DNA of 41,227 bases from a virus. Taxonomy: Duplodnaviria; Heunggongvirae; Uroviricota; Caudoviricetes. Below the pieces are notes generated by a model, which did not search any database, had not been told where the DNA came from, and saw nothing but the letters and a program-made list of their open reading frames with translations. Both the position numbers and the translations under genes were made by a program. Each line of letters opens with the position of its first letter. Positions within the stretch are counted from its first letter, which is position 1. The stretch covers positions 1 to 41,227 of the IMG/VR virus record IMGVR_UViG_2713896799_000015, one strand, 5' to 3'. Positions 5,212 to 35,792 of this stretch are shown here, in pieces.

Positions 5212-7443
5212 TTAAGACTTCTTAATGTACGACCATGTAACAGTGGTCGTACCGCTGCTGGTAATAGATATATTCCTTTCTGATGCGCTTGCTGTGAGGA
5301 ACGCCGCAGTCTTCAGCGTCTGGATCATTGCTGTCGTACCATCATAAATTACCAGGAATGAAATCGCGTAGTTTGCACCTCCGCCAGAAACCCACACGTT
5401 AACATCATAAACTCCCTCAGAGTTTGGCAAAGTAAATAGCACGGACGCTACGTTAGCGTTGACCGATTTAGTACCCTTGTCGGTATAGACCGTGGGCACC
5501 TGAAGCCCATTGGCATTTTTATTTTCTACATACCCACCAGCAATAACGCCTGACGTGATGCAGTTCGTGTAGTTAACGTTGCCGGTGCTCACAGTAGAGA
5601 TGGTTGGAGTTCCTCCGGCCGGAGCCTGGAACCGGCAGTTATCTGCATCAACCTGCGAGGTTACATCTGCGTGGATGAATGATGGATAGCCGGCCATTCC
5701 TTCAAAAGCGATCGGCGTACCATCGAAGCTATCTTTGCAGTTCAGCATCTTCACGCGAGATCCATTCATCGCGCGGTAAAAATCAACGATACCATTAGAA
5801 CCACCGAAAGATGTTTTCAACTTGTTGCCAGAACCAACTGCCCCGACTATCGAAACGGTTGAATTATCGAATGTCATAAACGCCACCTCAAGTGCTGAGT
5901 TGTTGTTTATAACGTTCGCCTCACCATCAAAACCGGAGATAAGAAATCCGTGACAATTCGAAAGGTAAATAGCAGACTGACCGATAGACGCGTTGGAGTT
6001 TACTGTCATCTTATCTGCTGCGCAGTTCGTCATCTGCCCTGAAAGGAGGTTTGTTAAATACCACGCGCATACACCCCCCATTACATAGCAGGACTCATAA
6101 TGGATCGTCGTGCCGGTGTTTTTGTAGAAACCACCGCGACTGCGACGCACCCATACATGCTCAAGCCTAGACATATAATTTCCAGAGTCGTCATATACTC
6201 CCCACCATGCCCCATCTATATCGACGTTTTTAATCCTTATCAAACCCGGCGATGTCTCACCACCATTTATAAGAATGCCAATTTTACCGTCGTTTGTGGC
6301 AGCATCTGTTGGATAGTCAATTCCATTCTGATCATAGAAAATATATAAATTCTCAATATTTCCTGAAGCAAAAGACTCTCCATAATGGAAGCACGCTTTA
6401 TTTCCAATTACGGAAATAAAAGTCCCTGATCTGTTTATTATGTTATTACACTCACCGTATACAGTTGCAGATGTATTCATCTTAATAATGTCATTAACAA
6501 AATATGCATTTCCACCTGGAATAAACACATTTCGTCCAGTGTTAATAGCTGCCTGTATTCCTGCGTAGTCAAAAGACTGGGTAAGCGATGTCACAAATGG
6601 ATATACCATTTGTGCTGCTGTCAATGTTGAAAACACTTCGCTTAACTGATGAAGTTTTCCATCGCCTGTAGCACCAAAATCTTTTGCACTAATAAAATCG
6701 CTGTTTTTATCATGCTGTGTACGAATAAATGAACTAATGAAAGGTTGCTTCACCGAGATCAGAGCATCGCCTTTCCCGTCCTCGCCGCTGGCCAACTGGT
6801 TGAATACGTCAGCCGCCGTTCCTGAAGGCACAGGGAACGGAACGGGCTTACCGTTGGCGATGCCGATTATGCTTCCTTCAAGTTGAGCGAGAGGTGGCAG
6901 CGGATCGATATAAGAATCAGGAACACGGATTGTATGGTCGATATTCGATAAAACTGTACTGTCCACATAATTCTTTGTGGATGCATCCTGCGGGTTTACC
7001 GGGTCTTTCAGGTTTCGAATATAGTTGTTCAGCGCGTTATAATAATTTGCCACGAATGACGGCTTGCGCAGCGCCAAGCTAAACCAACTTCGAACCTGCT
7101 GGATCAGCATCGTTAGCTTATCAAAAGCATCCTCATGCACTTCTGCAAAGAACTTACCCTGATTACGCAAATCAGTTTCCTGCGTAACCGGGAGCTCTCG
7201 TGATATAGAAATCTGGTAACCGTTAGCTAACGCCTTCGACAGAATTACATTACCGCCGTTATATCCACCAGCCCCAGTGACAGTGTAATCAGTATCAAGA
7301 GCCAGCACAGCGATATTTTCGTCAAGGTCAACCACCTGCACTACCAGATCAGATTCCTTGAAAACCCTAAAGGTATAAGGGAATGAAGTCGTAACGCCAT
7401 TGCCTGTGTATTCGTTGTGGTCAACTTCGGTTGAGACCGTCAT
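5212..7443 (-). CDS. Tailspike / tail fiber protein
   Basis: N-terminus (YTGNGVTTSFPYTFRVF...) resembles the T7 gp17-type adaptor domain; long Gly/Asn-rich beta-helix-like body; last gene of the T7-like structural order. Confidence 0.7.
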   Translation of the reverse strand: MTVSTEVDHNEYTGNGVTTSFPYTFRVFKESDLVVQVVDLDENIAVLALDTDYTVTGAGGYNGGNVILSKALANGYQISISRELPVTQETDLRNQGKFFAEVHEDAFDKLTMLIQQVRSWFSLALRKPSFVANYYNALNNYIRNLKDPVNPQDASTKNYVDSTVLSNIDHTIRVPDSYIDPLPPLAQLEGSIIGIANGKPVPFPVPSGTAADVFNQLASGEDGKGDALISVKQPFISSFIRTQHDKNSDFISAKDFGATGDGKLHQLSEVFSTLTAAQMVYPFVTSLTQSFDYAGIQAAINTGRNVFIPGGNAYFVNDIIKMNTSATVYGECNNIINRSGTFISVIGNKACFHYGESFASGNIENLYIFYDQNGIDYPTDAATNDGKIGILINGGETSPGLIRIKNVDIDGAWWGVYDDSGNYMSRLEHVWVRRSRGGFYKNTGTTIHYESCYVMGGVCAWYLTNLLSGQMTNCAADKMTVNSNASIGQSAIYLSNCHGFLISGFDGEANVINNNSALEVAFMTFDNSTVSIVGAVGSGNKLKTSFGGSNGIVDFYRAMNGSRVKMLNCKDSFDGTPIAFEGMAGYPSFIHADVTSQVDADNCRFQAPAGGTPTISTVSTGNVNYTNCITSGVIAGGYVENKNANGLQVPTVYTDKGTKSVNANVASVLFTLPNSEGVYDVNVWVSGGGANYAISFLVIYDGTTAMIQTLKTAAFLTASASERNISITSSGTTTVTWSYIKKS

Positions 7444-7547: not shown

Positions 7548-7562
7548 TTACCTTTCAGGTAA
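7548..7562. promoter_or_regulatory. Operator TTACCTTTCAGGTAA (perfect)
   Basis: 15-bp palindrome; the 16-mer ATTACCTTTCAGGTAA is identical to the copy at 25375-25390. Confidence 0.6.
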
Positions 7563-7639: not shown

Positions 7640-7897
7640 ATGCAGCAGTATCACTATCCACTGGAAGACGGATTTACCGAAAGGATTCACACGCCGGGAG
7701 GCGTCAGGTCACTGGTGGAGGGATCGCACTTGATGAAATTACTCCGGGATCTCGATAAGGATGGATTTAATGTCGATGGCCCACTTGCCGAACTGACTGC
7801 ACTGATTAACTACGTCACCAGCTCACAGATGTCTATGCGGGATCTGCAAACACATCTCGACTATTGTGCCGAACAATTACGAAAACAAACCCGGTAA
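7640..7897 (+). CDS. Small antirepressor-like protein (stand-alone homolog of Ant C-terminal domain)
   Basis: GGAG 9 nt upstream of ATG; aligns with the last ~85 residues of the 312-aa Ant (shared YxYPL, IHxPxGV, LMKLL, DG, AELT, RDxQTH). Confidence 0.55.
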   Translation: MQQYHYPLEDGFTERIHTPGGVRSLVEGSHLMKLLRDLDKDGFNVDGPLAELTALINYVTSSQMSMRDLQTHLDYCAEQLRKQTR

Positions 7898-7904
7898 ATT
7901 TAAA

Positions 7905-7920
7905 GGCCGCAAGAGCGGCC
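7905..7920. terminator. Hairpin GGCCGC-AAGA-GCGGCC downstream of ant (minus) and of the small gene (plus)
   Basis: On the minus strand the stem is followed by TTTAAATTT. Confidence 0.45.
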
Positions 7921-7921
7921 T

Positions 7922-7933
7922 GTGACATGTCAC
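7922..7933. repeat. Palindrome GTGACATGTCAC, copy 1 of 3
   Basis: Perfect 12-bp palindrome 1 nt from the hairpin; same 12-mer at 26364 and 28628. Confidence 0.7.
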
Positions 7934-7971
7934 GCTAGTTTCGTTTTGCACGTCCCTGTGCCGCCGTTCTG

Positions 7972-8910
7972 TCAGAAGAACCCTGCCTTGTCGTTGATGT
8001 ATTCCGCGTGCGTCTGGATATCACGCAGGCATTTGCTCACACCGACGATGTAGCAGAACATGGTGGTCAGCTCCGCCGCCGCGCCCGATACATCGTGCCC
8101 GTCTTCCTGTAACTGGTTCAGCAGTTTCATCAGCAGTGAGTTCTCCGTCAGGCCGAGAACACCCGACGGCGAATGAATCAGACTGCGGTAGCCTGGCTTC
8201 AATGGATAACCATAACATTTTGTCTGTGTTTTAATTGCCTCACGAAGCGCATCTAACATCTTGACTGCCACTTCATCATTCTCTGATGCAGATCCAGCAG
8301 GGAGATACTCCCCTTCAAGCGGAACCCGAGCAACAAGAGACAACGCTTCGGCAAATTGATCTTCACCAATTTCTTTGTACGAACAGCCAAAATGAGATTT
8401 CAGTGACGACCACATGGTGATCATCGCCTTAGCCTGTTTTTCTTTTGGCAGAGACTGACCGCGACTCATGACGAGTTGTTTAATGGCTTCCTGCTGTTCA
8501 GTTGTTATTTTACCCGGCAACGCCTTTTTAGCTTTGCGTGGGTTAACCACATGGCCTTTAGTCCAGTACTCGTAGAGCACATCGTCACACTCTTCCTGAT
8601 ACTGGATTACCTTGTCGCGGATTTCAGGGCGGACTTTGTTAGGGCTGATGCTGTTCAACCAAGCTGCCAATTTTCGTAAAGCCATACAAATCATGGCTTG
8701 CACCCCACCGGCAGAAGGTATGGTGATTTCCACCATACCCTTCGAGAAGCGTTGAGAAATCTTCTTATGTTGAGATTTCCAGTCTAGCCCCATTCCCTCA
8801 ACGATAGGTTTCATTGGGGTATACGGTTCGCCGTTGTGATTGACAACATAAAGCTCTGCGCCGTGGAATGGCACGTTGATAGTAGATACTGCTGTTGCTA
8901 TACTCGTCAT
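7972..8910 (-). CDS. Antirepressor Ant
   Basis: 312 aa, directly downstream of an Arc-like gene as in P22 immI; C-terminal domain shared with the small LexA-linked gene. Confidence 0.65.
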   Translation of the reverse strand: MTSIATAVSTINVPFHGAELYVVNHNGEPYTPMKPIVEGMGLDWKSQHKKISQRFSKGMVEITIPSAGGVQAMICMALRKLAAWLNSISPNKVRPEIRDKVIQYQEECDDVLYEYWTKGHVVNPRKAKKALPGKITTEQQEAIKQLVMSRGQSLPKEKQAKAMITMWSSLKSHFGCSYKEIGEDQFAEALSLVARVPLEGEYLPAGSASENDEVAVKMLDALREAIKTQTKCYGYPLKPGYRSLIHSPSGVLGLTENSLLMKLLNQLQEDGHDVSGAAAELTTMFCYIVGVSKCLRDIQTHAEYINDKAGFF

Positions 8911-8958
8911 GTCGTTAATTCCTATACGTAGTTTTACGATACTGAAGCCCTGACGGTC

Positions 8959-8973
8959 TGGCCACCGTGGGGC
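8959..8973. promoter_or_regulatory. Mnt/Arc-type operator-like site (core CCACCGTGGGGC)
   Basis: Shares 12 bp with the 9165-9179 palindrome; lies between arc and ant. Confidence 0.4.
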
Positions 8974-8982
8974 TTCGCTGTT

Positions 8983-21392: not shown

Positions 21393-22385
21393 TTACACCA
21401 CACGGGCTTCTGTTTCCAGAAGCGCATCAGTTTCACGGATTGGTACACCACGGAATGAAGTCCACCACTCGCCTTCTGTCTCTTTTACGCTGATCGCCAG
21501 AGATGTTTTCTCCAGAGATTGCAGATCAAGAGCCTGGCCTACAGTGCGGTTCATGTAGAACACCGGGCGACCCATTCCACGGTTTGGAATGCGATGCAGT
21601 GCTTTAACCATCAACTTCGCAATATTTGCGGCAGAGGAAGGTTCTGAAAGATTGCTGACATCGATGTTTGCAATGCGAACAACATAACGCCAGTCACGCA
21701 GAGCAAGTCCGTTGTCCCATTTGTAATGGGTGCGATAGCCTTCGTACTTGCCGCCATTAGCATCTTCCAGTGTCACCTGGCCTTTATCTTCCATCTGGAT
21801 GCCAGCCTTCTGCCCTTTCGGGAAGATGCCATGCACGGTGTTTTCGCCCCACACCACTAACCAGATTGAGGTGTTATCTGTACCCGTGCCACCAGCATCA
21901 ATGATGTTCTGAGCATTACCCGCAGACAGGCTGGAATAGCGGGAGGACAGTCCCATAAACTGCTGAGGGTTAACGCTGGAATCACCATAAAACAGCGTCT
22001 GCGCCATCTGCTGATTCATCGCTTCAATAAATGCGCGGTCTTCAGACAGGCGGAATTCGGCGGTATTGCCGTTCAGATCAGCCAGTGACTTATCGACTTC
22101 AGCATAGGTTTCCAGCATGCCCACGGAATCGGTTACCTGCACTGTGGTTGATTTGCTTGGCTGTACGCCATAGTTCAGCAAACGCCAGGTAGCTGAAGGT
22201 AAACCAGAACGAATGGTGGTTCGGTGTCCGGTAGGAAGGTTCCCTTCGACAAAAGGCATATCCTGAAGGATCGGGTTAGTTTGACCGAGAAGCTCGATAA
22301 TCTTATCGACTTTCCCGTTTGGATCGACGCGCTTACCCCAGTCAGCCAGCGTTAGCGCAGTTAAGCCTTTAACAGACATTGTCAT
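21393..22385 (-). CDS. Major capsid protein
   Basis: 330 aa, follows the scaffold gene; size fits epsilon15-type capsid proteins. Confidence 0.65.
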   Translation of the reverse strand: MTMSVKGLTALTLADWGKRVDPNGKVDKIIELLGQTNPILQDMPFVEGNLPTGHRTTIRSGLPSATWRLLNYGVQPSKSTTVQVTDSVGMLETYAEVDKSLADLNGNTAEFRLSEDRAFIEAMNQQMAQTLFYGDSSVNPQQFMGLSSRYSSLSAGNAQNIIDAGGTGTDNTSIWLVVWGENTVHGIFPKGQKAGIQMEDKGQVTLEDANGGKYEGYRTHYKWDNGLALRDWRYVVRIANIDVSNLSEPSSAANIAKLMVKALHRIPNRGMGRPVFYMNRTVGQALDLQSLEKTSLAISVKETEGEWWTSFRGVPIRETDALLETEARVV

Positions 22386-22393
22386 TTCCTCTC

Positions 22394-23095
22394 TTATTTG
22401 CCATAGAGCACTTCGGCCGCACTACGCTGGCCTTCATTACCACCGGTGACCATGCCATCTTCAGACATCGCCTTTCCGATTTTCACGAACGTTTTGACCA
22501 GATCAGGGTGATTACCCAGCCCGGTGGTGTTCAGATATTCTTTGAGTTCAGGTGTCCCGAACTGGTCAAGCGCACGCTGTGCGGCGCTAAGGTTAGAAAT
22601 CAACTTGTCGCCACCGATTTCTTTGTCAGCTTTTACATCCGCAGCCCACTGCTCGGTTGTTTTCTGCCAGGCTTCTGCCTGGCGCTGCTGAACACCTGCC
22701 AGAATCTTCGGATAAGCATCAACCAGCTTTTGCGCTTGCTCGTTGGTCAGGTTAAGTTCTCGCGCCACCGGCTCGAATTCCTTCAACGCTTCTGTATCCA
22801 GCTCTACGCCTTCGGCAGCCTGAAACTCGTACTTCTCAGGCGCACCCTCTGGTTTATCGCCGTCCTTTTTTTCATCCTGCTTATCGTTTTCAGGCTTTTT
22901 GTCATCAGCAGGTTTATCGCCATCAGCAACAGGTTGTGGCTTATCACCTTCCTGTTGTGATGGATCACCAACTGGAGCAGGGTTATCACCTGCAGGCGCT
23001 GACGGTTCTGACGCAGCCGGAGCTGCTCCACCATCGACTGGTTGCTCATTGCAAAGACGGCTATACAGCAAACGCTCAAATAAATTCATGATCAC
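22394..23095 (-). CDS. Scaffolding protein
   Basis: Acidic, Pro/Asp/Lys-rich low-complexity N-half; between portal and capsid. Confidence 0.5.
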   Translation of the reverse strand: MIMNLFERLLYSRLCNEQPVDGGAAPAASEPSAPAGDNPAPVGDPSQQEGDKPQPVADGDKPADDKKPENDKQDEKKDGDKPEGAPEKYEFQAAEGVELDTEALKEFEPVARELNLTNEQAQKLVDAYPKILAGVQQRQAEAWQKTTEQWAADVKADKEIGGDKLISNLSAAQRALDQFGTPELKEYLNTTGLGNHPDLVKTFVKIGKAMSEDGMVTGGNEGQRSAAEVLYGK

Positions 23096-23388
23096 TCCTG
23101 TTCACTGGCCTCTTTGGCCATCTTCAAATACTGTTCAGGGCAATGCGCCATAACGCGCTGAAACAGTTCCAGCGCCAGATTGCGTTGCCCCTCATTAAAT
23201 GCCATTGCCATAGCGTCCATCGGTGAGATAGCGGAAAACACACGGCCTTTCTCCAGCACCGACCAGACAACGCGACGCCCATGTTCACTGCTCATGACAA
23301 AGCGAATGTCATCAATTTCACGCTGTGCCATGTCACGTTGCTTACGGGCGTTTTCTTCTTTCAGTTGATCGTCTTCGTAATCTGTCAT
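23092..23388 (-). CDS. Hypothetical small protein between portal and scaffold
   Basis: 98 aa, 4-nt overlaps at both ends. Confidence 0.35.
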   Translation of the reverse strand: MTDYEDDQLKEENARKQRDMAQREIDDIRFVMSSEHGRRVVWSVLEKGRVFSAISPMDAMAMAFNEGQRNLALELFQRVMAHCPEQYLKMAKEASEQE

Positions 23389-25064
23389 TGTGATTGCCCA
23401 CCCTGACCACTAACTGCATTCGCCATAGCTGACAAAACACTCGGATCCGAAGTTTTAGCTTCGCTTAGCGTCTTGGCACCCTGTGCCGCCGCCATCCCCA
23501 TCGCCATCATTTGTTGCTGCTGTTGCTGCTGTGCCCGTTGCTGGCGAGCCTGCTCAACCTGTTCCTGCGGAACAATGACGGTTGGAGACACTCCGGACAT
23601 ATCAGCGAATGCATCGATCGCCTGATCAACGTTGAGTTTGTCGAGAGCTTCTGGTTTCGCTTGCGCAAGTTGACCAATGAAGTTAACCGTGGACGCCAGA
23701 CTGGACAGGCCGATAGACTTCTGCGCCTGAGCCATGACGGAAATGTATTCGACCTTCAGGGGCATGCCTTCCATCGCGTCAGGCGGTGGCGGCAGCATGT
23801 TTTTACGCACCATCATCGAGAAAGCGCGGTCAATGAGAGGATTAAGACATTCGTCGTTCAGACGCTCCAGAACCGGCCCCAACATCAGAAGCTTTTCTTC
23901 TTTCATTTCGATCACCGCTTCAACAGGCATTGAGCGGGTATTGATGTTCTGCAACATCATGAACAGATCGACGAAGTAGGCGCTGTTAATGATTTGACGA
24001 GTGTCCTGAATGTCTGCCACCAAATCTGCTGTACTTGGGTTAACCAGATAAGCAGGCCTGAAGCCATCCTGACCAGTAATCTGATCGATATACGTGATGT
24101 CGCCAGGAAGAAGGGAGGCACGCTGATTCTTGAGGGAAGTCGGAGCAACCATCGGCGGATTGGTGGCTTTATCAATCAACTGCGACTTGCGCTTCTGGAG
24201 AAGCTGCAATGCCTTAACAGGTCCAAGCGCCAGCATACCCGGGCATGATGATCCATAAACATCTTCGCCATTAACTTCCCAGCGCGGAGCCATAATTGGA
24301 AACTCATCGAATCCGGACTCACGCAACAACTTGTCGTTATCGCCACCAACCTCGTAATAAACCGATTTGAATGGCTTGTTCTTGCTATCCAGCTTCGATG
24401 TATCGCGGTCAATGTTCGGGTAAACCGAATGCATCACTTCGATCCACTTCTCGTAGGTGCCGCTTTCCCACATGCTTTTTACGGATTCGCTGACGTTATT
24501 TAGCCCGAACTCCTGAACAAGCTGACGAACAGTCATAGAGAACTTGCGAAAACAGGTGTCAACACTGCCACGAGGTGAGTTAGCCAGGTAGTAACTGCCT
24601 ATCGGGAATGGCATTGTGCGAATGATGTCCTCGTCATCCTCCAGCACCGCCATTGCACCAGTGCTGTATGTGCAGAGGCTTCCGTATAACTGCGGAAGAG
24701 ACTGGTAGAGATTCGACTTATTGAACATATCGTTCATGCGGTTCTGCACCGCCTCGAGCCACAACTTAACAGGACCATAATCCATCATTTCAGGATCTGG
24801 CGTAGCCAGGCGAAACCACGGACGCGCAGGGCTTGTGATGCCTGACATCATGCCGCTGGCGAGAGTGCGCGCCGCCATAGTCCCGGTCGAATCAATAATG
24901 CGTGTATTGCGTCGATCGTTACGGTTGACCTCAGAAGTCAGAAAGCGGGAACCACGCGGGTTGATGTAATCACTCAACTCGCGCCAGTGCGGCTCGAACG
25001 ACTGACGCTCGCTTTCAAGTTGTGCGAACTGTTTGTTCAATCGCTCTTTAGTTGTTTCCGCCAT
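23385..25064 (-). CDS. Portal (head-to-tail connector) protein
   Basis: 559 aa with Gln-rich C-terminus, downstream of terminase as in T7-like modules. Confidence 0.75.
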   Translation of the reverse strand: MAETTKERLNKQFAQLESERQSFEPHWRELSDYINPRGSRFLTSEVNRNDRRNTRIIDSTGTMAARTLASGMMSGITSPARPWFRLATPDPEMMDYGPVKLWLEAVQNRMNDMFNKSNLYQSLPQLYGSLCTYSTGAMAVLEDDEDIIRTMPFPIGSYYLANSPRGSVDTCFRKFSMTVRQLVQEFGLNNVSESVKSMWESGTYEKWIEVMHSVYPNIDRDTSKLDSKNKPFKSVYYEVGGDNDKLLRESGFDEFPIMAPRWEVNGEDVYGSSCPGMLALGPVKALQLLQKRKSQLIDKATNPPMVAPTSLKNQRASLLPGDITYIDQITGQDGFRPAYLVNPSTADLVADIQDTRQIINSAYFVDLFMMLQNINTRSMPVEAVIEMKEEKLLMLGPVLERLNDECLNPLIDRAFSMMVRKNMLPPPPDAMEGMPLKVEYISVMAQAQKSIGLSSLASTVNFIGQLAQAKPEALDKLNVDQAIDAFADMSGVSPTVIVPQEQVEQARQQRAQQQQQQQMMAMGMAAAQGAKTLSEAKTSDPSVLSAMANAVSGQGGQSQ

Positions 25065-25353: not shown

Positions 25354-25390
25354 TTGACATTTAACGCGTGAATTATTACCTTTCAGGTAA
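25354..25390 (+). promoter_or_regulatory. Promoter-like TTGACA plus operator TTACCTTTCAGGTAA (25376-25390)
   Basis: TTGACA at 25354-25359; perfect operator copy begins 17 bp later, upstream of the tRNA unit. Confidence 0.45.
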
Positions 25391-25712: not shown

Positions 25713-25789
25713 GTGGCATTAGCTCAGTCGGACAGAGCAACCGCCTTCTAAGCGGTTGGTCGCAGGTTCGAATCCTGCATGCCACGCCA
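25713..25789 (+). tRNA. tRNA-Arg (anticodon UCU)
   Basis: 77-nt cloverleaf: acceptor GTGGCAT/ATGCCAC, anticodon stem ACCGC/GCGGT, loop CTTCTAA, T-arm GCAGG-TTCGAAT-CCTGC, encoded CCA. Confidence 0.85.
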
Positions 25790-25987: not shown

Positions 25988-26359
25988 ATGAACGACAAGC
26001 AAATCGAAAAAGAAATCGTTGAGAAAGGCAAAACGGCACCGCGCGTTACGCCAGACCATATCGAAGGAATTATTGCTCAGGAGGCATATTTCACAGCAGA
26101 AGATGGTGCCTTTGGCAAAGCCATAAAAGCGAAACATACTGGCGGAGAGGTAAACTACCAGCCGCACGAATCACTTTCTCTGCTGACGTTCTGCGTCCTG
26201 GTGCTGCGCAACGGCTTCACCGTCACCGGAGAGAGCGCCTGTGCAAGCCCGGAAAACTTTGATGCAGAAATTGGTCGGAAGATTGCCCGGCAGAATGCTG
26301 TAAACAAAATCTGGATGCTCGAAGGTTACTTGCTGAAGCAGAAGCTAAGCGAGCAATAA
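25988..26359 (+). CDS. Small phage protein, possibly Gp49/Sf6-gp66-like family
   Basis: 123 aa, AAGGTGAG RBS; family call is from recalled motif resemblance only. Confidence 0.4.
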   Translation: MNDKQIEKEIVEKGKTAPRVTPDHIEGIIAQEAYFTAEDGAFGKAIKAKHTGGEVNYQPHESLSLLTFCVLVLRNGFTVTGESACASPENFDAEIGRKIARQNAVNKIWMLEGYLLKQKLSEQ

Positions 26360-26363
26360 CACC

Positions 26364-26375
26364 GTGACATGTCAC
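26364..26375. repeat. Palindrome GTGACATGTCAC, copy 2 of 3
   Basis: Perfect 12-mer 5 nt upstream of the 26381-26406 terminator. Confidence 0.7.
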
Positions 26376-26380
26376 AAACA

Positions 26381-26406
26381 GCCAGCCGATGAGCTGGCTT
26401 TGTTTT
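26381..26406 (+). terminator. Rho-independent terminator
   Basis: GCCAGC-CGATGA-GCTGGC followed by TTTGTTTT. Confidence 0.6.
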
Positions 26407-26449: not shown

Positions 26450-27925
26450 TTAAGCATAGGGATCGTAATCTGTGATGGCCTTGCCTTGCTGGTTCTGCTG
26501 CCCGGGAATTCGCAGACGCTTCGACACAGGGAACGCAAACGTCAGCAGTAGCGCATCGCCTTTACCAGGCGAACGCCCAAGCCGCTCCTTGATATCTTCC
26601 TTCGGTTCGATAACGATTTTACCGTCCACTCGAACTTTGTACTCTGCCGCCGACAGATCGTCCGCTGTTTCCTGGTCATCCAGCATCCCGCCCAGCCTCA
26701 GCCATGTCTTGCATGAGTTGAACATCTCCCCACGCTTGTTGAGCATCTGCTGGTCAGTAGACGCGCCACCGAACGGAACAAGTTGCCATGTGCGCCCCCA
26801 ACCGTCACCGATTGACTTCAGACCGGTACCGTAACCAAAGTCGATGAACACTGCGTCAGCCTGATACAGGTCTTCAAAGTCAGCGATACGCTTCGCCATA
26901 ATCAGATCGTCGGTAGTCTTGTTGCCAGTCCACAGCACCTTACTGTGTAGCCCCTGCCGCAGGTATATCACCGCGTCATCAACGCCTGAATATGCCGGGT
27001 CAACACCGATTATCACCGGAGCATGCGCCACCTGCGCAGCGGTTACCACCCGTTTCATTGCCTCATCAGTAAGACCGGTAGGGATAAACTGCAATTCAGA
27101 TGCATCAGGGAATATGCCGCGCACACGGATTTTAACGAAGTCGCTGTCTTCCCCGTAGTCATCAACCCATTTCTGCAACTGCTGTTTGTTAGTGCCTTCC
27201 ACCGTCCGGCTGTCAATCTGCGCAGTTTTCCAGCGGTGTTTATATTTGCGGAAACATTCACGGAATCGCCCGGTATTACGCGTCGGGTTTCCGAACGCCA
27301 CCCAGATAATCTCAGTGTCTTCGTCCGTTAGCGCACCTTCGGCAACTTCCCACACCAGATCCGCAATGTTCGACGCTTCATCGAATACCACGATGATGCG
27401 TTTGCGCTCGTTGTGTAGTCCGGCGAATGCCTCAGTGTTGTGCTCAGACCAAGGGATTGCGTCAGCTCGCCACCGCTTGTCGTGCCCAGGATCATTGCTG
27501 TACATCGCGGTAGCGGTACAGGTAAACCAGTCTTTCGTGATAGCAAGGTTCGACCACTTGATAATTTCCGGCCAGGTCTTCGTTCGTAGCTGGTTGTCGG
27601 TGTTGGCGGTCACCACGACCTTACAATCCTCGCAAGTGGACATGCCCCAGTTGATCAGCATTGAGATGAATGCGGATTTACCAATACCGTGACCAGAAGC
27701 GCGTGCCAGCATAAGCGGCTGATAGCGCGTCTCTGGATTCTGCAGGTGATCACGTATCTCTCGGAACGCATCAGCCTGCCACTGACGTGGGCCGGTGGCA
27801 TGTGCCAGTTCAGTCCCCTCTTCCCCCCACGGGAACGCATAGAGGGCATAGCCAAGCGGATCGTGAGTGAACCCTGCAATATCCTCGATCAACTGCTCTT
27901 CAGGAGATAACGCTGTATCTGTCAC
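26450..27925 (-). CDS. Terminase large subunit
   Basis: Walker A GHGIGKS near N-terminus, 491 aa, 4-nt overlap with small subunit gene. Confidence 0.8.
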   Translation of the reverse strand: MTDTALSPEEQLIEDIAGFTHDPLGYALYAFPWGEEGTELAHATGPRQWQADAFREIRDHLQNPETRYQPLMLARASGHGIGKSAFISMLINWGMSTCEDCKVVVTANTDNQLRTKTWPEIIKWSNLAITKDWFTCTATAMYSNDPGHDKRWRADAIPWSEHNTEAFAGLHNERKRIIVVFDEASNIADLVWEVAEGALTDEDTEIIWVAFGNPTRNTGRFRECFRKYKHRWKTAQIDSRTVEGTNKQQLQKWVDDYGEDSDFVKIRVRGIFPDASELQFIPTGLTDEAMKRVVTAAQVAHAPVIIGVDPAYSGVDDAVIYLRQGLHSKVLWTGNKTTDDLIMAKRIADFEDLYQADAVFIDFGYGTGLKSIGDGWGRTWQLVPFGGASTDQQMLNKRGEMFNSCKTWLRLGGMLDDQETADDLSAAEYKVRVDGKIVIEPKEDIKERLGRSPGKGDALLLTFAFPVSKRLRIPGQQNQQGKAITDYDPYA

Positions 27926-28518
27926 TGATTACCATCCTGACGTTCTTTGAGTCGCTTCCTGGCTGCCGCTATGCGATCAGCAATTGTCACATTCACATTA
28001 ACATCCAGGCGTTCTTTGAACGCGTTGACGTCGACGTGCTTACCAATCAGTTCGAGGTTCTTCACCTTGTCAGGCCATTTAATTTTTTTGAGGATTGTCT
28101 CTATCGAATCCTCGTTCATGTTCATGATGGTCGATGACAGATCAAAGCCACTAAGCGTAGTGCGCCAGATTTTCGGCCACTCGCGGATTGGCTTAAGGCT
28201 CCCATCGTCGTTGAGGATGTCGATCACGTCCATCTGGTCGATCTCCACCAGGCGCATGAGAACGTAATCAGCACTGACGCGCATTCGTTTGTTGCGCTCC
28301 TCCATCAACTCGGCAATCCGTTTTTGAATGCGTTCATCGCGCATCATGACACTGGCTTTAACTGCCGCTGTATTTGGGGAGAATCCTGCGTTAATCGCTG
28401 CCTGAGTCTGGTTTTCAGGCGTTTTGATGTATGACTGGCAATAAGCCTCCTGCATTGCTGTTAGTGGCTTAAATTGCGTTGATTTGCGTTTATAGGTTTT
28501 AGGTTCAGCAGGCATCAT
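27922..28518 (-). CDS. Terminase small subunit
   Basis: Start taken at MMPAEPK (28518); the longer ORF's N-terminal extension lies over a DNA repeat region and is unlikely to be translated. Confidence 0.55.
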   Translation of the reverse strand: MMPAEPKTYKRKSTQFKPLTAMQEAYCQSYIKTPENQTQAAINAGFSPNTAAVKASVMMRDERIQKRIAELMEERNKRMRVSADYVLMRLVEIDQMDVIDILNDDGSLKPIREWPKIWRTTLSGFDLSSTIMNMNEDSIETILKKIKWPDKVKNLELIGKHVDVNAFKERLDVNVNVTIADRIAAARKRLKERQDGNQ

Positions 28519-28560
28519 AACCACCGTGGTAATAGTTACCGTTGTGGTAATAGTACCATG

Positions 28561-28587
28561 CAAAATAAAGCCGCCATAGTTGGCGGC
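28561..28587 (-). terminator. Minus-strand terminator just upstream of terminase genes
   Basis: On the minus strand GCCGCCA-ACTA-TGGCGGC followed by TTTATTTTG. Confidence 0.55.
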
Positions 28588-28627: not shown

Positions 28628-28639
28628 GTGACATGTCAC
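28628..28639. repeat. Palindrome GTGACATGTCAC, copy 3 of 3
   Basis: Perfect 12-mer overlapping the stop of the 28636-28977 gene, 41 nt upstream (minus sense) of the terminator. Confidence 0.7.
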
Positions 28640-28977
28640 ACTATTAATTTCGTTTCATGCCAGCCTTTAGTCACCCAGCATTGTGAGTCACCATTACACG
28701 GACATGAATTAACTGGAACTCTCTCGCCGCACTTACCGCAACGTTTTCTAATGATCGATTTTATACGCCCGCGCACGCGTGCATCATCCTGGCGGATCAG
28801 TAACGCTATATACTCACAAAATTCGTAAGGCGCACGCCCGGGGCGACGCGCAGCACAGTTACGCTCAAGCATTTCAATTTCCTGAGCATCAAGCACAATT
28901 TCCAGCTTACGCACACCAGATGCAGCTTGTCTGGCTCTCTGAGCGGCTTTGCGCTCTGCTGCTGATTTAGCCATCAA
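28636..28977 (-). CDS. Small Cys-rich protein (possible zinc-binding regulator)
   Basis: Basic N-terminus, C-terminal CGKCG...CPCNGDSQC cluster; last gene before the terminator preceding terminase. Confidence 0.4.
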   Translation of the reverse strand: MMAKSAAERKAAQRARQAASGVRKLEIVLDAQEIEMLERNCAARRPGRAPYEFCEYIALLIRQDDARVRGRIKSIIRKRCGKCGERVPVNSCPCNGDSQCWVTKGWHETKLIV

Positions 28978-29922: not shown

Positions 29923-30678
29923 TTAAACTGCTAGTTGCAATTGCATTTCAAAGCGGTCGCGTTGTTCACAATACGCAAGAGAACCAGGGCTATTGTGTGC
30001 CTCAATCCGTTCTACCATTAATGCTGCGCGTGTCTCTTTACTTGCAGGTGCATAAGCCCCAGACCAGGCTTTATCAATACCGATGTTTCGAGCGACGTTC
30101 GTACTATCTGCGCTGGCTAAGGGTAATTTTGTGAATATCAGCGGATTTAACATGCGCAATCCATGTAGTTTCGTAACCGGCTGACCATGCTCATCAACAA
30201 TGTGACGAATCAGGTCTTTCATTCTGGCTACCGCAAGAGTTGGGCGCTTTACGTCATAGTCGCCACAACTACCGATAGCCACTCGCGGAAACTCATTGCA
30301 CAAATGAATAAATCGCTCGTCACTTTCATTCATGTGCCACACTGGAACGCCAGCTAGTTTTCCGTGAGGCCACTCATTCAGAAGCGCATCATTTTCCTCC
30401 TCTCCGCCATCAATAACATCCGGGATAATGGCAAAATCGAATCCTGGGTGATTCTTCCAGCGAGCGACAAACTCGTAGTAATCGCTCCAGTCGATTTTGT
30501 TTTTGCCAGCTGCTTTCCAGGCGGTGAATGCACCGTTGTCCAGCGCGAACGACTGACAGTATTCAGCCGCGAGATTGATCTGGCCTGAATGCGCAAAACT
30601 GATAAACGCATGTCGCCCTTTCCATGCTCTCATTGCGCACGTATCAGGAGTAATAGGCCCACCGTGGTAGTGAATCAT
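29923..30678 (-). CDS. Hypothetical protein, 251 aa
   Basis: No clear family; weak resemblance of VAIGSCGDYD to a TGT/DpdA glycine-rich motif. Confidence 0.4.
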   Translation of the reverse strand: MIHYHGGPITPDTCAMRAWKGRHAFISFAHSGQINLAAEYCQSFALDNGAFTAWKAAGKNKIDWSDYYEFVARWKNHPGFDFAIIPDVIDGGEEENDALLNEWPHGKLAGVPVWHMNESDERFIHLCNEFPRVAIGSCGDYDVKRPTLAVARMKDLIRHIVDEHGQPVTKLHGLRMLNPLIFTKLPLASADSTNVARNIGIDKAWSGAYAPASKETRAALMVERIEAHNSPGSLAYCEQRDRFEMQLQLAV

Positions 30679-32610: not shown

Positions 32611-32688
32611 TTACCCCTTAGGTAATTAAAAACCACATAAGACATGAAATCAATAGAAATTAGAACATTTTATTACCTACAAGGTAAT
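32611..32688. promoter_or_regulatory. Two perfect operators (TTACCCCTTAGGTAA 32611-32625; TTACCTACAAGGTAA 32674-32688)
   Basis: First copy starts 4 bp from the ATG of the 32607 gene and covers its RBS; both lie in a 117-bp gap between same-strand genes. Confidence 0.55.
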
Positions 32689-34955: not shown

Positions 34956-35019
34956 TCACCTATAAGGTAACAAAAATCAAGGATAGTTACCCATGAGGTG
35001 CATTTACCTGTTGGGTAAT
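34956..35019. promoter_or_regulatory. Operator cluster (OR-like): three sites between cro-like and repressor genes
   Basis: TCACCTATAAGGTAA (34956-34970), TTACCCATGAGGTGC (34987-35001), TTACCTGTTGGGTAA (35005-35019). Confidence 0.6.
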
Positions 35020-35715: not shown

Positions 35716-35792
35716 TTACCTAACAGGTAATTTTTTTAACTCATATCTATTGACATCAAACCAGATACGCATAATTATTACCTCAACGGTAA
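35716..35792. promoter_or_regulatory. Operator pair (OL-like) with TTGACA promoter element between them
   Basis: TTACCTAACAGGTAA (35716-35730) and TTACCTCAACGGTAA (35778-35792); TTGACA at 35750-35755. Confidence 0.6.

Follow-up and report, generated by a model that had tools for sequence, protein, structure and literature searches.

A palindrome beside three terminators of an epsilon15-like prophage as the predicted operator of the PHROG 536 protein, with a possible role in terminator read-through

Phages of the epsilon15/phiV10 type are without homologues of N and Q, and we know of no established switch to late gene expression in them. The window analysed here, i.e., the whole stretch of 41,227 nucleotides of DNA, is an epsilon15/phiV10-like (Uetakevirus) prophage with its late genes on the minus strand, in which a 12-bp palindrome, GTGACATGTCAC, recurs at three places beside hairpins (Table 1), and the question raised by this locus is which protein reads the palindrome and what it does there. 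The sequence-only reading had counted three copies of the 12-mer, more than chance would give, and had seen in them a reused regulatory cassette. All three copies were confirmed as exact, where ~0.0025 exact copies are expected from the length of the window alone. When up to one mismatch was allowed, shuffled versions of the window contained a mean of 0.11 matches, and four or more matches were reached in 0 of 100 shuffles. The only single-mismatch copy in the window, GTGCCATGTCAC at position 23325, was considered as a fourth site and rejected as a chance match, since it lies within a coding region and varies in relatives (GGCAC or GGCGC). The palindrome is most likely bound by a small uncharacterised phage regulator, whose gene adjoins one copy and which would probably decide between stopping and read-through at the terminators between early and late genes, and a concrete pair of protein and site is now a candidate for these phages.

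The genes that end at the three copies are ant (minus strand), a plus-strand ORF resembling Sf6 gene 66 (25988-26359; Pfam PF13876), and the regulator gene (minus strand), and along the direction of the gene ending there the order at each copy is gene stop, palindrome, terminator. Beside all three copies, a GC-rich hairpin and, behind it, a T-run lie on the upstream gene's strand, which identifies intrinsic terminators; the palindrome itself forms part of no terminator stem. Hairpins had previously been placed 1, 5, and 41 nt from the copies, and the gaps given in Table 1 bear this out within 1 nt. Copy 1 follows a P22-type ant gene, part of an arc-sar-ant module that was inserted behind the structural genes; copy 2 is located between the gene-66-like ORF and the convergent terL; and copy 3 is located between the last gene of the early-right operon, i.e., the regulator gene, and terS. 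Copies 1 and 2 are both situated at convergent gene junctions. The T-run after the hairpin beside copy 2 is good on the plus strand and weak on the minus strand (GTTTGTG), and in the late direction this copy comes after the hairpin, not before it. That copies 1 and 3 precede late genes, as had been stated, holds only loosely: copy 3 lies ~110 nt before terS, but copy 1 is separated from the tailspike gene by ~480 nt and one reversed ORF. The sequence AAACGAAA, described as common to copies 1 and 3, was located correctly on the minus strand, 5 and 8 nt upstream of these copies, but was not found to be conserved. At copy 3 it represents the last codons of the regulator gene (..E-T-K..), and at copy 1 it is missing in most relatives (phiV10, epsilon15, PAT1, and Tyrion), so it is not part of the element.

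Among close relatives, the exact 12-mer is present at all three equivalent positions in epsilon15 (the element is also carried by Salmonella, Enterobacter, and Klebsiella phages) and in the Enterobacter phage Tyrion. Salmonella phage PAT1 has the same three positions with a change of a central base only at copy 2 (GTGACAGGTCAC), and phiV10 has two exact copies and a third one with one mismatch, which is split across the ends of the record. In 80 close relatives from viral contigs, copy 3 was exact in 75 of 79 cases and copy 2 in 49 of 60, and copy 2 was absent from TL-2011b and from Klebsiella phage BUCT711. Copy 3 is the universal copy of a gene-site cassette, and copy 2 the least constrained and a dispensable one. 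Copy 1 is present in phiV10, TL-2011b, epsilon15, PAT1, Tyrion, and BUCT711 with unrelated upstream flanks; the gene upstream of it is ant, gp21, or gp18 depending on the phage, and the palindrome and the AGGCCGC...GCGGCCT hairpin persist. The stem of this hairpin is kept in all Uetakeviruses examined, with a variable loop and a gap to the palindrome that varies from 0 to 10 nt. The copy-3 terminator is conserved in epsilon15, PAT1, and Tyrion with a gap of 22-24 nt. At copy 2, the sequence of the stem differs among the window and phiV10, epsilon15, and PAT1, and the hairpin itself is retained; that of epsilon15 is imperfect and is missed by a simple hairpin finder. A terminator is found within 0-41 nt after all three sites of the window and after sites 1 and 3 of every Uetakevirus examined. 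The search of related prophages for the 12-mer plus a terminator, which had been proposed as a check, thus recovered both at equivalent positions (epsilon15, PAT1, Tyrion), and within the Uetakeviruses the idea of a reused regulatory element that is conserved and linked to terminators stands. Outside the Uetakeviruses, the motif rarely adjoins a terminator.

Flanks, hairpin loops, and neighbouring genes differ among the phages that keep the 12-mer, and homology with different relatives breaks within 7891-7936 and at 28636-28643 of the window. Such breaks would be compatible with a passive by-product of recombination, i.e., a mosaic boundary without a function of its own, and the copy-1 upstream flank of the window and of TL-2011b (AAACGAAACTA) looks like the 3' end of a regulator gene of the BUCT711 type, which suggests spread by recombination. 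We read the element as a conserved island in mosaic flanks, at which a clustering of breakpoints is to be expected. Amid diverging surroundings, its half-sites are perfect from E. coli phages to elements of Pseudomonas and Pseudoalteromonas, their spacing is strictly N2, and the motif is retained even in frame within coding sequence, all of which argues for selection on the site itself and leaves a functionless boundary with hardly any likelihood. An interpretation as a moron boundary element had also been offered, and the clustering of homology breakpoints at the element agrees with it; the Sf6-gene-66-like moron of other phage types, however, comes without the palindrome, which is therefore not a generic moron boundary. 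The palindrome was also rejected as a part of the gene-66 moron, since homology with the copies in Sf6, mEpX1, and Stx phages stops before the stop codon and the palindrome.

Table 1. Features of the window and sites of the GTGAC-N2-GTCAC motif at PHROG 536 genes of other lineages
Feature or genome	Position	Strand	Sequence	Remark
Palindrome copy 1	7922..7933	.	GTGACATGTCAC	end of virion-structural / arc-ant transcription unit
Palindrome copy 2	26364..26375	.	GTGACATGTCAC	4 nt past stop of plus-strand Sf6-gene-66-like ORF; beside terminator shared with terL
Palindrome copy 3	28628..28639	.	GTGACATGTCAC	the regulator gene has its TGA stop in bases 2-4
Intrinsic terminator at copy 1	7904/7905-7920/7921	-	AGGCCGC-loop-GCGGCCT, then TTTAAATTT	0-1 nt after copy 1
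Terminator hairpin at copy 2	26380-26399	+	hairpin, then TTGTTTTAT	4 nt after copy 2; between convergent terL and gene-66-like ORF
Strong intrinsic terminator at copy 3	28570-28587	-	GCCGCC-AACT-ATGGCGGC, then TTTATTTTG	separates regulator gene from terS; starts after a 40-nt gap downstream of copy 3
Regulator gene, 112 aa, PHROG 536 (epsilon15 gp49, phiV10 gp55, N15 gp46 family)	28636..28974	-		presumed palindrome binder
Two repressor-type operators	28518..28550	.	TTACC-N5-GGTAA	between copy-3 terminator and terS start; context, outside the palindrome element
terS	~27922-28519	-
terL	26450-27925	-
Portal	23385-25064	-
Major capsid protein	21393-22385	-
Tailspike	5212-7443	-
N15 gp46			GCG-TGA-CTGGTCAC, site GTGACTGGTCAC	overlaps stop
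Yersinia P2-like phage			TTG-TGA-CGCGTCAC, site GTGACGCGTCAC	overlaps stop
Lambdoid Chlobot			exact 12-mer	6 nt past TAA
Metagenomic contigs L090, L092			GTGACAGGTCAC	overlaps stop
Metagenomic contig L091				two copies
Vibrio 10N.237			GTGACAGGTCAC	overlaps stop
Pseudomonas element L097			GTGACTGGTCAC	overlaps stop
Pseudoalteromonas element L098			GTGACATGTCAC (exact)	overlaps stop
Mu-like prophages L101, L102			in frame, codons V-T-G-H	where other family members stop
Vibrio K233, PhiPS02				~230 nt downstream of gene; two further copies each
Two Aeromonas lineages			GTGACCGGACAC	1-mismatch versions only

The 12-mer is one allele of a general motif, GTGAC-N2-GTCAC, which was inherited together with the PHROG 536 gene in at least 12 of 14 independent lineages, with protein identities of 31-45% (Table 1). 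The site at the stop codon is also kept in epsilon15, PAT1, Tyrion, and BUCT711. In an unbiased count across 20 lineages (570 kb), 37 copies of the motif were found versus 0.54 expected, and the runner-up among palindromes of the form 5-N2-5 reached 9 copies. Within the same 20 lineages, the half-sites were separated by N2 in these 37 cases, by N1 and N3 in three cases each, and by N0 or N4-N7 in none. Each genome carries 1-4 dispersed copies (usually 1-3), and N15, K233, epsilon15, and the window have three copies each where 0.03-0.05 are expected. Gene and site together constitute an old cassette, with the site overlapping or adjoining the stop codon of the gene itself; the hosts of the phages that carry it include Salmonella, Klebsiella, Enterobacter, Yersinia, Vibrio, Aeromonas, Pseudomonas, and Pseudoalteromonas. 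A common target gene downstream was rejected, as the genes that follow the site are from unrelated families; a pac or packaging site was rejected as well, because in cos phages (N15, P2-like) and Mu-like phages the gene ahead of the motif is that of the regulator and not terS.

Between lineages, the half-sites are invariant and the two central bases vary freely, which is the signature of a DNA site for a symmetric dimer and not of an RNA stem. The sites are transcribed at the 3' ends of genes just upstream of terminators, where an element acting as RNA could be placed, either nut/boxB-like or as a 3'-UTR hairpin bound by a protein, and zinc ribbons, one of which is predicted in the regulator (see below), can bind RNA. 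The hairpin would, however, comprise 4 bp with an MFE of -1.2 kcal/mol, the invariant half-sites come without compensatory changes while the centre varies, and copy 2 would need to work on either strand; an RNA element is accordingly given next to no weight. Rfam gave no family match at the sites. Because of the co-inheritance of gene and motif and the modelled ribbon-helix-helix (RHH)/zinc-ribbon protein, the palindrome is most likely the operator of the PHROG 536 protein, a prediction that we hold with good confidence. The protein at 28636-28977, which the sequence-only reading had singled out as the partner of the palindrome, is thereby strongly backed across very distant phages. The ten specified bases would then predict the targets of the PHROG 536 protein, and its regulon could be read in any genome.

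The regulator belongs to PHROG 536, which is labelled “transcriptional regulator” (E 1.6e-53). Searches against Pfam gave nothing at E <= 0.01 for the regulator and nothing at <= 1 across 52 members of the family, searches against NCBIfam gave nothing significant, and no match was obtained against PDB sequences. In the literature searched, there was no published description of the PHROG 536 family or its site, and no papers on the 12-mer or on late regulation of Uetakeviruses were found. An AlphaFold2 model based on 52 homologues (pLDDT 91.8) consists of a basic N-terminal helix (5-19), an extended stretch (20-29), two helices (30-42 and 52-75), a Cys-rich ribbon (77-99), and a short helix. 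R8 and R13 are invariant in the N-terminal basic helix, C79 and C82 are invariant in the family as well, and C99 is ~90% conserved. The model contains the strand-helix-helix unit that dimerises into a two-stranded sheet and by which RHH proteins are recognised, and the fold is confidently predicted to combine a basic helix, an RHH core, a long helix, and a zinc ribbon. The regulator resembles RHH repressors (Arc, Mnt, CopG, TacA, AmrZ) in its predicted fold, in being small, and in having a palindromic target beside its gene. It differs from them in that the target is located at the 3' end of the gene and not in a promoter, recognition seems to reside on the invariant N-terminal basic helix instead of a variable beta-strand, a zinc ribbon is present at the C-terminus, and the half-sites are only 7 bp apart from centre to centre.

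For the half of the protein that contains the long helix and the ribbon, a profile search of PDB sequences gave marginal hits, namely YbiI (E 0.065) and TraR (E 0.096), both of which are DksA/TraR zinc fingers that bind the secondary channel of RNA polymerase. Comparison of the ribbon half with the DksA/TraR zinc finger resulted in a weak hhalign probability of 45%, and Foldseek found no match. What is shared is a long helix followed by a zinc ribbon of the form CxxC-G-x-x-(I/L)-P...C and a short helix; the likeness is weak, with scores below significance and no structural match, and the regulator is without the acidic tip residues, has C-W in place of CxxC as its last ligand pattern, and uses its long helix also as helix 2 of the RHH. 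The TraR/YbiI-like zinc ribbon is the sole hint of a module binding RNA polymerase and is taken as a weak lead only.

The half-sites also occur in a host system. The consensus of matS in E. coli is GTGACATTGTCAC (PMC8669397), and the general form of matS is GTGAC[AG]N[TC]GTCAC with a length of 13 bp (PMC3603311). The half-sites GTGAC/GTCAC are identical to those of the phage motif, the sites are dispersed in both systems, and MatP likewise has an RHH domain; the copies in the window, however, are all 12 bp long (N2), whereas matS has 13 bp (N3), such that removal of one central base from the E. coli consensus yields the 12-mer. A role in DNA architecture or segregation, as known for MatP/matS or ParB/parS, was considered on these grounds, in which the protein would bridge or mark dispersed sites, or host MatP/MukBEF would interact with near-matS sites, and in which the neighbouring terminators would be incidental because sites can live only in intergenic DNA. 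The dispersal of one to four copies per genome would suit such a role, as would the several carriers that are plasmid-prophages with ParA and the three loci that additionally carry a 13-bp site fitting the matS consensus. A site just 3' of the gene of its binder is also the layout of parB-parS and sopB-sopC. The PHROG 536 profile gives no significant alignment with MatP (hhalign probability 0.5%), which has a four-helix bundle and a coiled coil where the PHROG 536 protein has its zinc ribbon. Further points that speak against an architectural role are the preference for N2 over N3 (37 versus 3 copies, 20 lineages), the presence of the family and the same half-sites in Pseudomonas elements, the integrated state of Uetakevirus, Mu-like, and P2-like prophages, which need no partition, and the tight, conserved pairing with terminators in Uetakeviruses, which it would leave unexplained. 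As far as we know, Pseudomonas lacks MatP. Since there is no homology to MatP, the spacing is N2, and the same half-sites occur in Pseudomonas elements, the binder would be a phage protein and not host MatP, and an architectural role is considered distinctly unlikely. A true matS site was rejected on spacing and lack of homology, despite the difference of one base from the consensus. This small difference raises the question of cross-talk with, or origin from, the chromosome-organising system of the host, and the resemblance may be due to common descent, convergence, or cross-talk.

In the early-right operon of the window, no N- or Q-type genes were found, and the only regulators encoded there are a Cro-like protein, a CI-like protein, and the PHROG 536 protein. 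In a scan for sigma-70 promoters, none reached the threshold ahead of the tailspike gene, terS, or the portal block. The early genes of the Pseudomonas, Pseudoalteromonas, and Vibrio elements also end with the regulator, downstream of which come a strong promoter, a conserved 5' hairpin, and one or two strong terminators before the holin, endolysin, and terminase genes; no Q gene was found within the 10 kb inspected in these elements, and the layout is Q-like. Taken literally, the sequence-only reading would make of each copy a late promoter with an antiterminator-loading site and a terminator, as in lambda PR'-qut-tR'. Copy 3 does read GTGACA-18-CATGAT, a weak match to sigma-70 (9/12), and epsilon15 reads GTGACA-17-TAAATT (by eye), with a terminator following and the regulator gene directly upstream, as with Q. 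Nothing comparable was found at copies 1 and 2, where the hairpin begins 1-5 nt past the palindrome and leaves neither strand with a fitting -10 element, and a promoter was rejected as the general function. The number of promoter-like matches equals the expectation from shuffling, the start codon of the next gene follows within 10-19 nt of the motif in N15, K233, and Chlobot, the motif is part of coding sequence in Mu-like phages, and the strong promoter of the Pseudomonas, Pseudoalteromonas, and Vibrio elements is 50-150 nt away at no fixed distance, all of which renders a promoter cassette very unlikely.

The analogy to lambda survives with respect to position, in that the regulator occupies the place of lambda Q and is followed by a terminator and then the late genes, but not with respect to a Q-family protein or a site embedded in a promoter. 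The cassette is nearest to lambda Q-QBE-tR' by position: the early-right operon ends with the regulator gene, the site is immediately downstream, a strong terminator precedes the late genes, and the cassette is modular and found in mosaic contexts. It departs from lambda in its regulator, which combines an RHH with a zinc ribbon (on the model) and is outside the Q families (Q-lambda, Q21, Q82), and in its site, which is a perfect palindrome overlapping a stop codon with no convincing constitutive sigma-70 promoter around it (the 9/12 match at copy 3 only). Moreover, extra copies of the palindrome are placed directly before other terminators, and N15 and Chlobot carry a Q besides PHROG 536.

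As the best explanation overall, we propose that the palindrome is the operator of the PHROG 536 protein and serves the control of read-through, to which a probability of roughly 0.45 is assigned. We infer the binding, a contact of the protein with RNA polymerase, and the direction of its effect as follows. A dimer of the RHH/zinc-ribbon protein probably puts its two invariant N-terminal basic helices on the GTGAC half-sites, and the RHH sheet would lie over the free 2-bp centre of the palindrome. In Uetakeviruses, the cassette closes the early-right operon and is directly followed by a strong terminator and the terminase genes. Another universal copy stands immediately ahead of the terminator of the virion-structural unit, with the tailspike and lysis genes beyond it, and a third, dispensable copy is placed at the terL/gene-66 terminator. 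Once accumulated, the regulator would occupy these sites and act on RNA polymerase crossing them, such that the adjacent terminators are read through; it would thereby do the work of lambda Q by means of an unrelated fold. Without the regulator, in the lysogen, the terminators would insulate the late genes. It fits this proposal that both universal copies mark points at which rightward-to-late transcription would otherwise end, i.e., the early-right/terS and the structural/tailspike-lysis junctions. That the regulator at the palindromes controls passage through the neighbouring terminators is a tentative claim, somewhat short of even odds, and antitermination as the direction of this control is more doubtful. 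Read-through by the bound regulator is our best guess because no N or Q gene was found, no late promoter reached the scan threshold, and the layout in distant elements is Q-like.

The same operator and binder could also have the opposite effect, namely as a roadblock or insulator at operon ends, which would reinforce the terminators and exert feedback on the operon of the regulator. In N15, Chlobot, K233, and Mu-like phages, this feedback would extend to the genes just behind the site; in the former three, the site is at the 3' end of the regulator's own gene, and its short distance to the next start codon fits a roadblock or a repressor equally well. RHH proteins are classically repressors, and the convergent junctions at copies 1 and 2 would suit a roadblock too. 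In addition, CI-type operators (TTACC-N5-GGTAA), a type annotated as repressor-binding in epsilon15, are located upstream of every late block and may belong to separate, repressible late promoters; the existence of such independent promoters would make antitermination unnecessary. A roadblock placed 1-5 nt before a hairpin would, however, stall the polymerase first and render the pairing with a terminator redundant, a block of read-through at the early-to-late junction would bring no obvious benefit late in infection, and terS needs read-through, as it has no promoter at the scan threshold. A roadblock is regarded as unlikely for these reasons. Concerning the reach of the proposed read-through control, Q-type late regulators are encoded by N15 and Chlobot themselves, and activators of the Mor/C and Ogr types by Mu-like and P2-like phages, so the PHROG 536 protein is not a universal late switch. 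The place of copy 2 beyond its hairpin in the late direction and the rarity of adjoining terminators outside the Uetakeviruses also speak against read-through control. With palindrome and terminator 0 to 41 nt apart, there is no fixed geometry for a model of local contact.

The ops element is read as single-stranded non-template DNA by a NusG paralogue. The phage palindrome is comparable to RfaH/ops and Xp10 p7 in that a short DNA element in a transcribed region could recruit a factor to the polymerase ahead of terminators. Xp10 p7 acts through the upstream DNA duplex (PMC4513864). In contrast to the phage regulator, p7 is without a DNA site, and the regulator is homologous to neither factor. 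It is improbable, yet conceivable, that PHROG 536 represents a new class of sequence-specific antiterminator loaded from duplex DNA, in which the RHH and basic helix would read GTGAC-N2-GTCAC where the early operon ends and once more ahead of later terminators, and the TraR/DksA-like ribbon would be handed to the polymerase, making it resistant to terminators. If this were true, a Q-like late switch would be common to the Uetakeviruses and the Vibrio, Pseudomonas, and Pseudoalteromonas elements (some with ParA-type genes) and accessory in N15-, Mu-, and P2-like phages; a regulator that acts on elongating polymerase would add a new fold to the few antiterminators that are loaded at DNA sites. 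In a more unusual variant, the near-matS sequence would result from descent from, or interference with, host MatP/matS.

In the annotation of phiV10, terminators are placed inside the early-right operon without a nearby motif, which counts against the proposed read-through control. The region of regulator, site, and terminator was matched in 612 of 5426 complete E. coli genomes, in which the gene is annotated as hypothetical.

Sites of the repressor-type form TTACC-N5-GGTAA occur eight times exactly in the window, and 37 times when up to two mismatches are allowed (versus 11.7 expected). They make up OR- and OL-like clusters in the immunity region and are also found immediately 5' of terS, the portal block, and the tailspike gene, with the copies at 7548 and 25376 being the same sequence (TTACCTTTCAGGTAA). 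This placement suggests that every late block is directly guarded by the prophage repressor, which may either occupy a promoter operator or form a roadblock. The annotation of epsilon15 includes equivalent sites. The gap from the gene-66-like ORF to the portal block contains a tRNA gene (25713-25786, plus strand, 73 bits) on the strand opposite the late genes.

Features located in the window and in loci carrying the regulator (PHROG 536)
Feature	Location	Remark
Repressor-type operators	window 7548-7562, 25376-25390, 28518-28550	late-block side
Repressor-type operators	window 34956-35018, 35716-35792, 32611-32687	further positions
Regulator-to-lysis conserved unit	L097 10450-10670; L098 10450-10615; L095 9000-9120; L088 20600-20790; L096 20610-20800; L090 ~600-690	
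In-frame motif, Mu-like prophages	L101 6337-6348; L102 6349-6360	
One-mismatch copy of the 12-mer	window 23325-23336	GTGCCATGTCAC; within small ORF 23092-23388 (-)

The elements from Pseudomonas, Pseudoalteromonas, and Vibrio share a conserved unit located downstream of the regulator gene and ahead of the lysis genes, in which a near-consensus sigma-70 promoter (e.g., TTGACA-17-TATCTT) is followed by a conserved 5' hairpin (CGTGGTG-N6-CGCCAC) and, about 100 nt further on, by one or two strong terminators. The unit could encode a small RNA or represent a late leader of the PR'/tR' kind, the hairpin possibly serving as a put- or qut-like element. In the window, a few genes 5' of the regulator, the early-right operon carries a queuine tRNA-ribosyltransferase-like gene (29923-30678, minus strand; PHROG 887, E-value 3e-103), whose product may have a DNA or tRNA modification function.

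In the two Mu-like prophages, the GTGAC-N2-GTCAC motif lies away from the stop codon and is read in frame as V-T-G-H within the C-terminal extension of the regulator, shortly 5' of gemA, so that the DNA site has been retained in a changed coding context. The phage 12-mer equals the consensus of matS, the E. coli MatP site (GTGACATTGTCAC), minus one central base (PMC8669397, PMC3603311). Although matS is reportedly avoided by prophages, 13-bp sites fitting its consensus were found in three family-bearing loci, namely the Vibrio loci K233 (19491) and PhiPS02 (8818) and an Aeromonas locus (L100, 5622). The one-mismatch copy in the window is no fourth site but a coincidence of coding sequence, since relatives vary at this position (GTGACATGGCAC, n = 39; GTGACATGGCGC, n = 33).

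A sar antisense RNA (Rfam, 44.8 bits; gathering threshold 43) was identified at 8912-8979 on the plus strand, overlapping the start of the P22-type ant gene (7972-8910, minus strand), and this Uetakevirus thus carries an inserted P22 immI-like arc-sar-ant module where its structural genes end, like the related phage TL-2011b. In both phages, the non-coding flank 5' of copy 1 of the 12-mer (window 7934-7950, minus strand) reads AAAACGAAACTAGC, which is similar to GAAACGAAACTACCGCT, the last codons of a BUCT711-type regulator allele (BUCT711, L104 ~443-465). Based on this similarity, copy 1 in ant-carrying phages may have arisen from a recombination that brought along a 3'-end fragment of the regulator gene.
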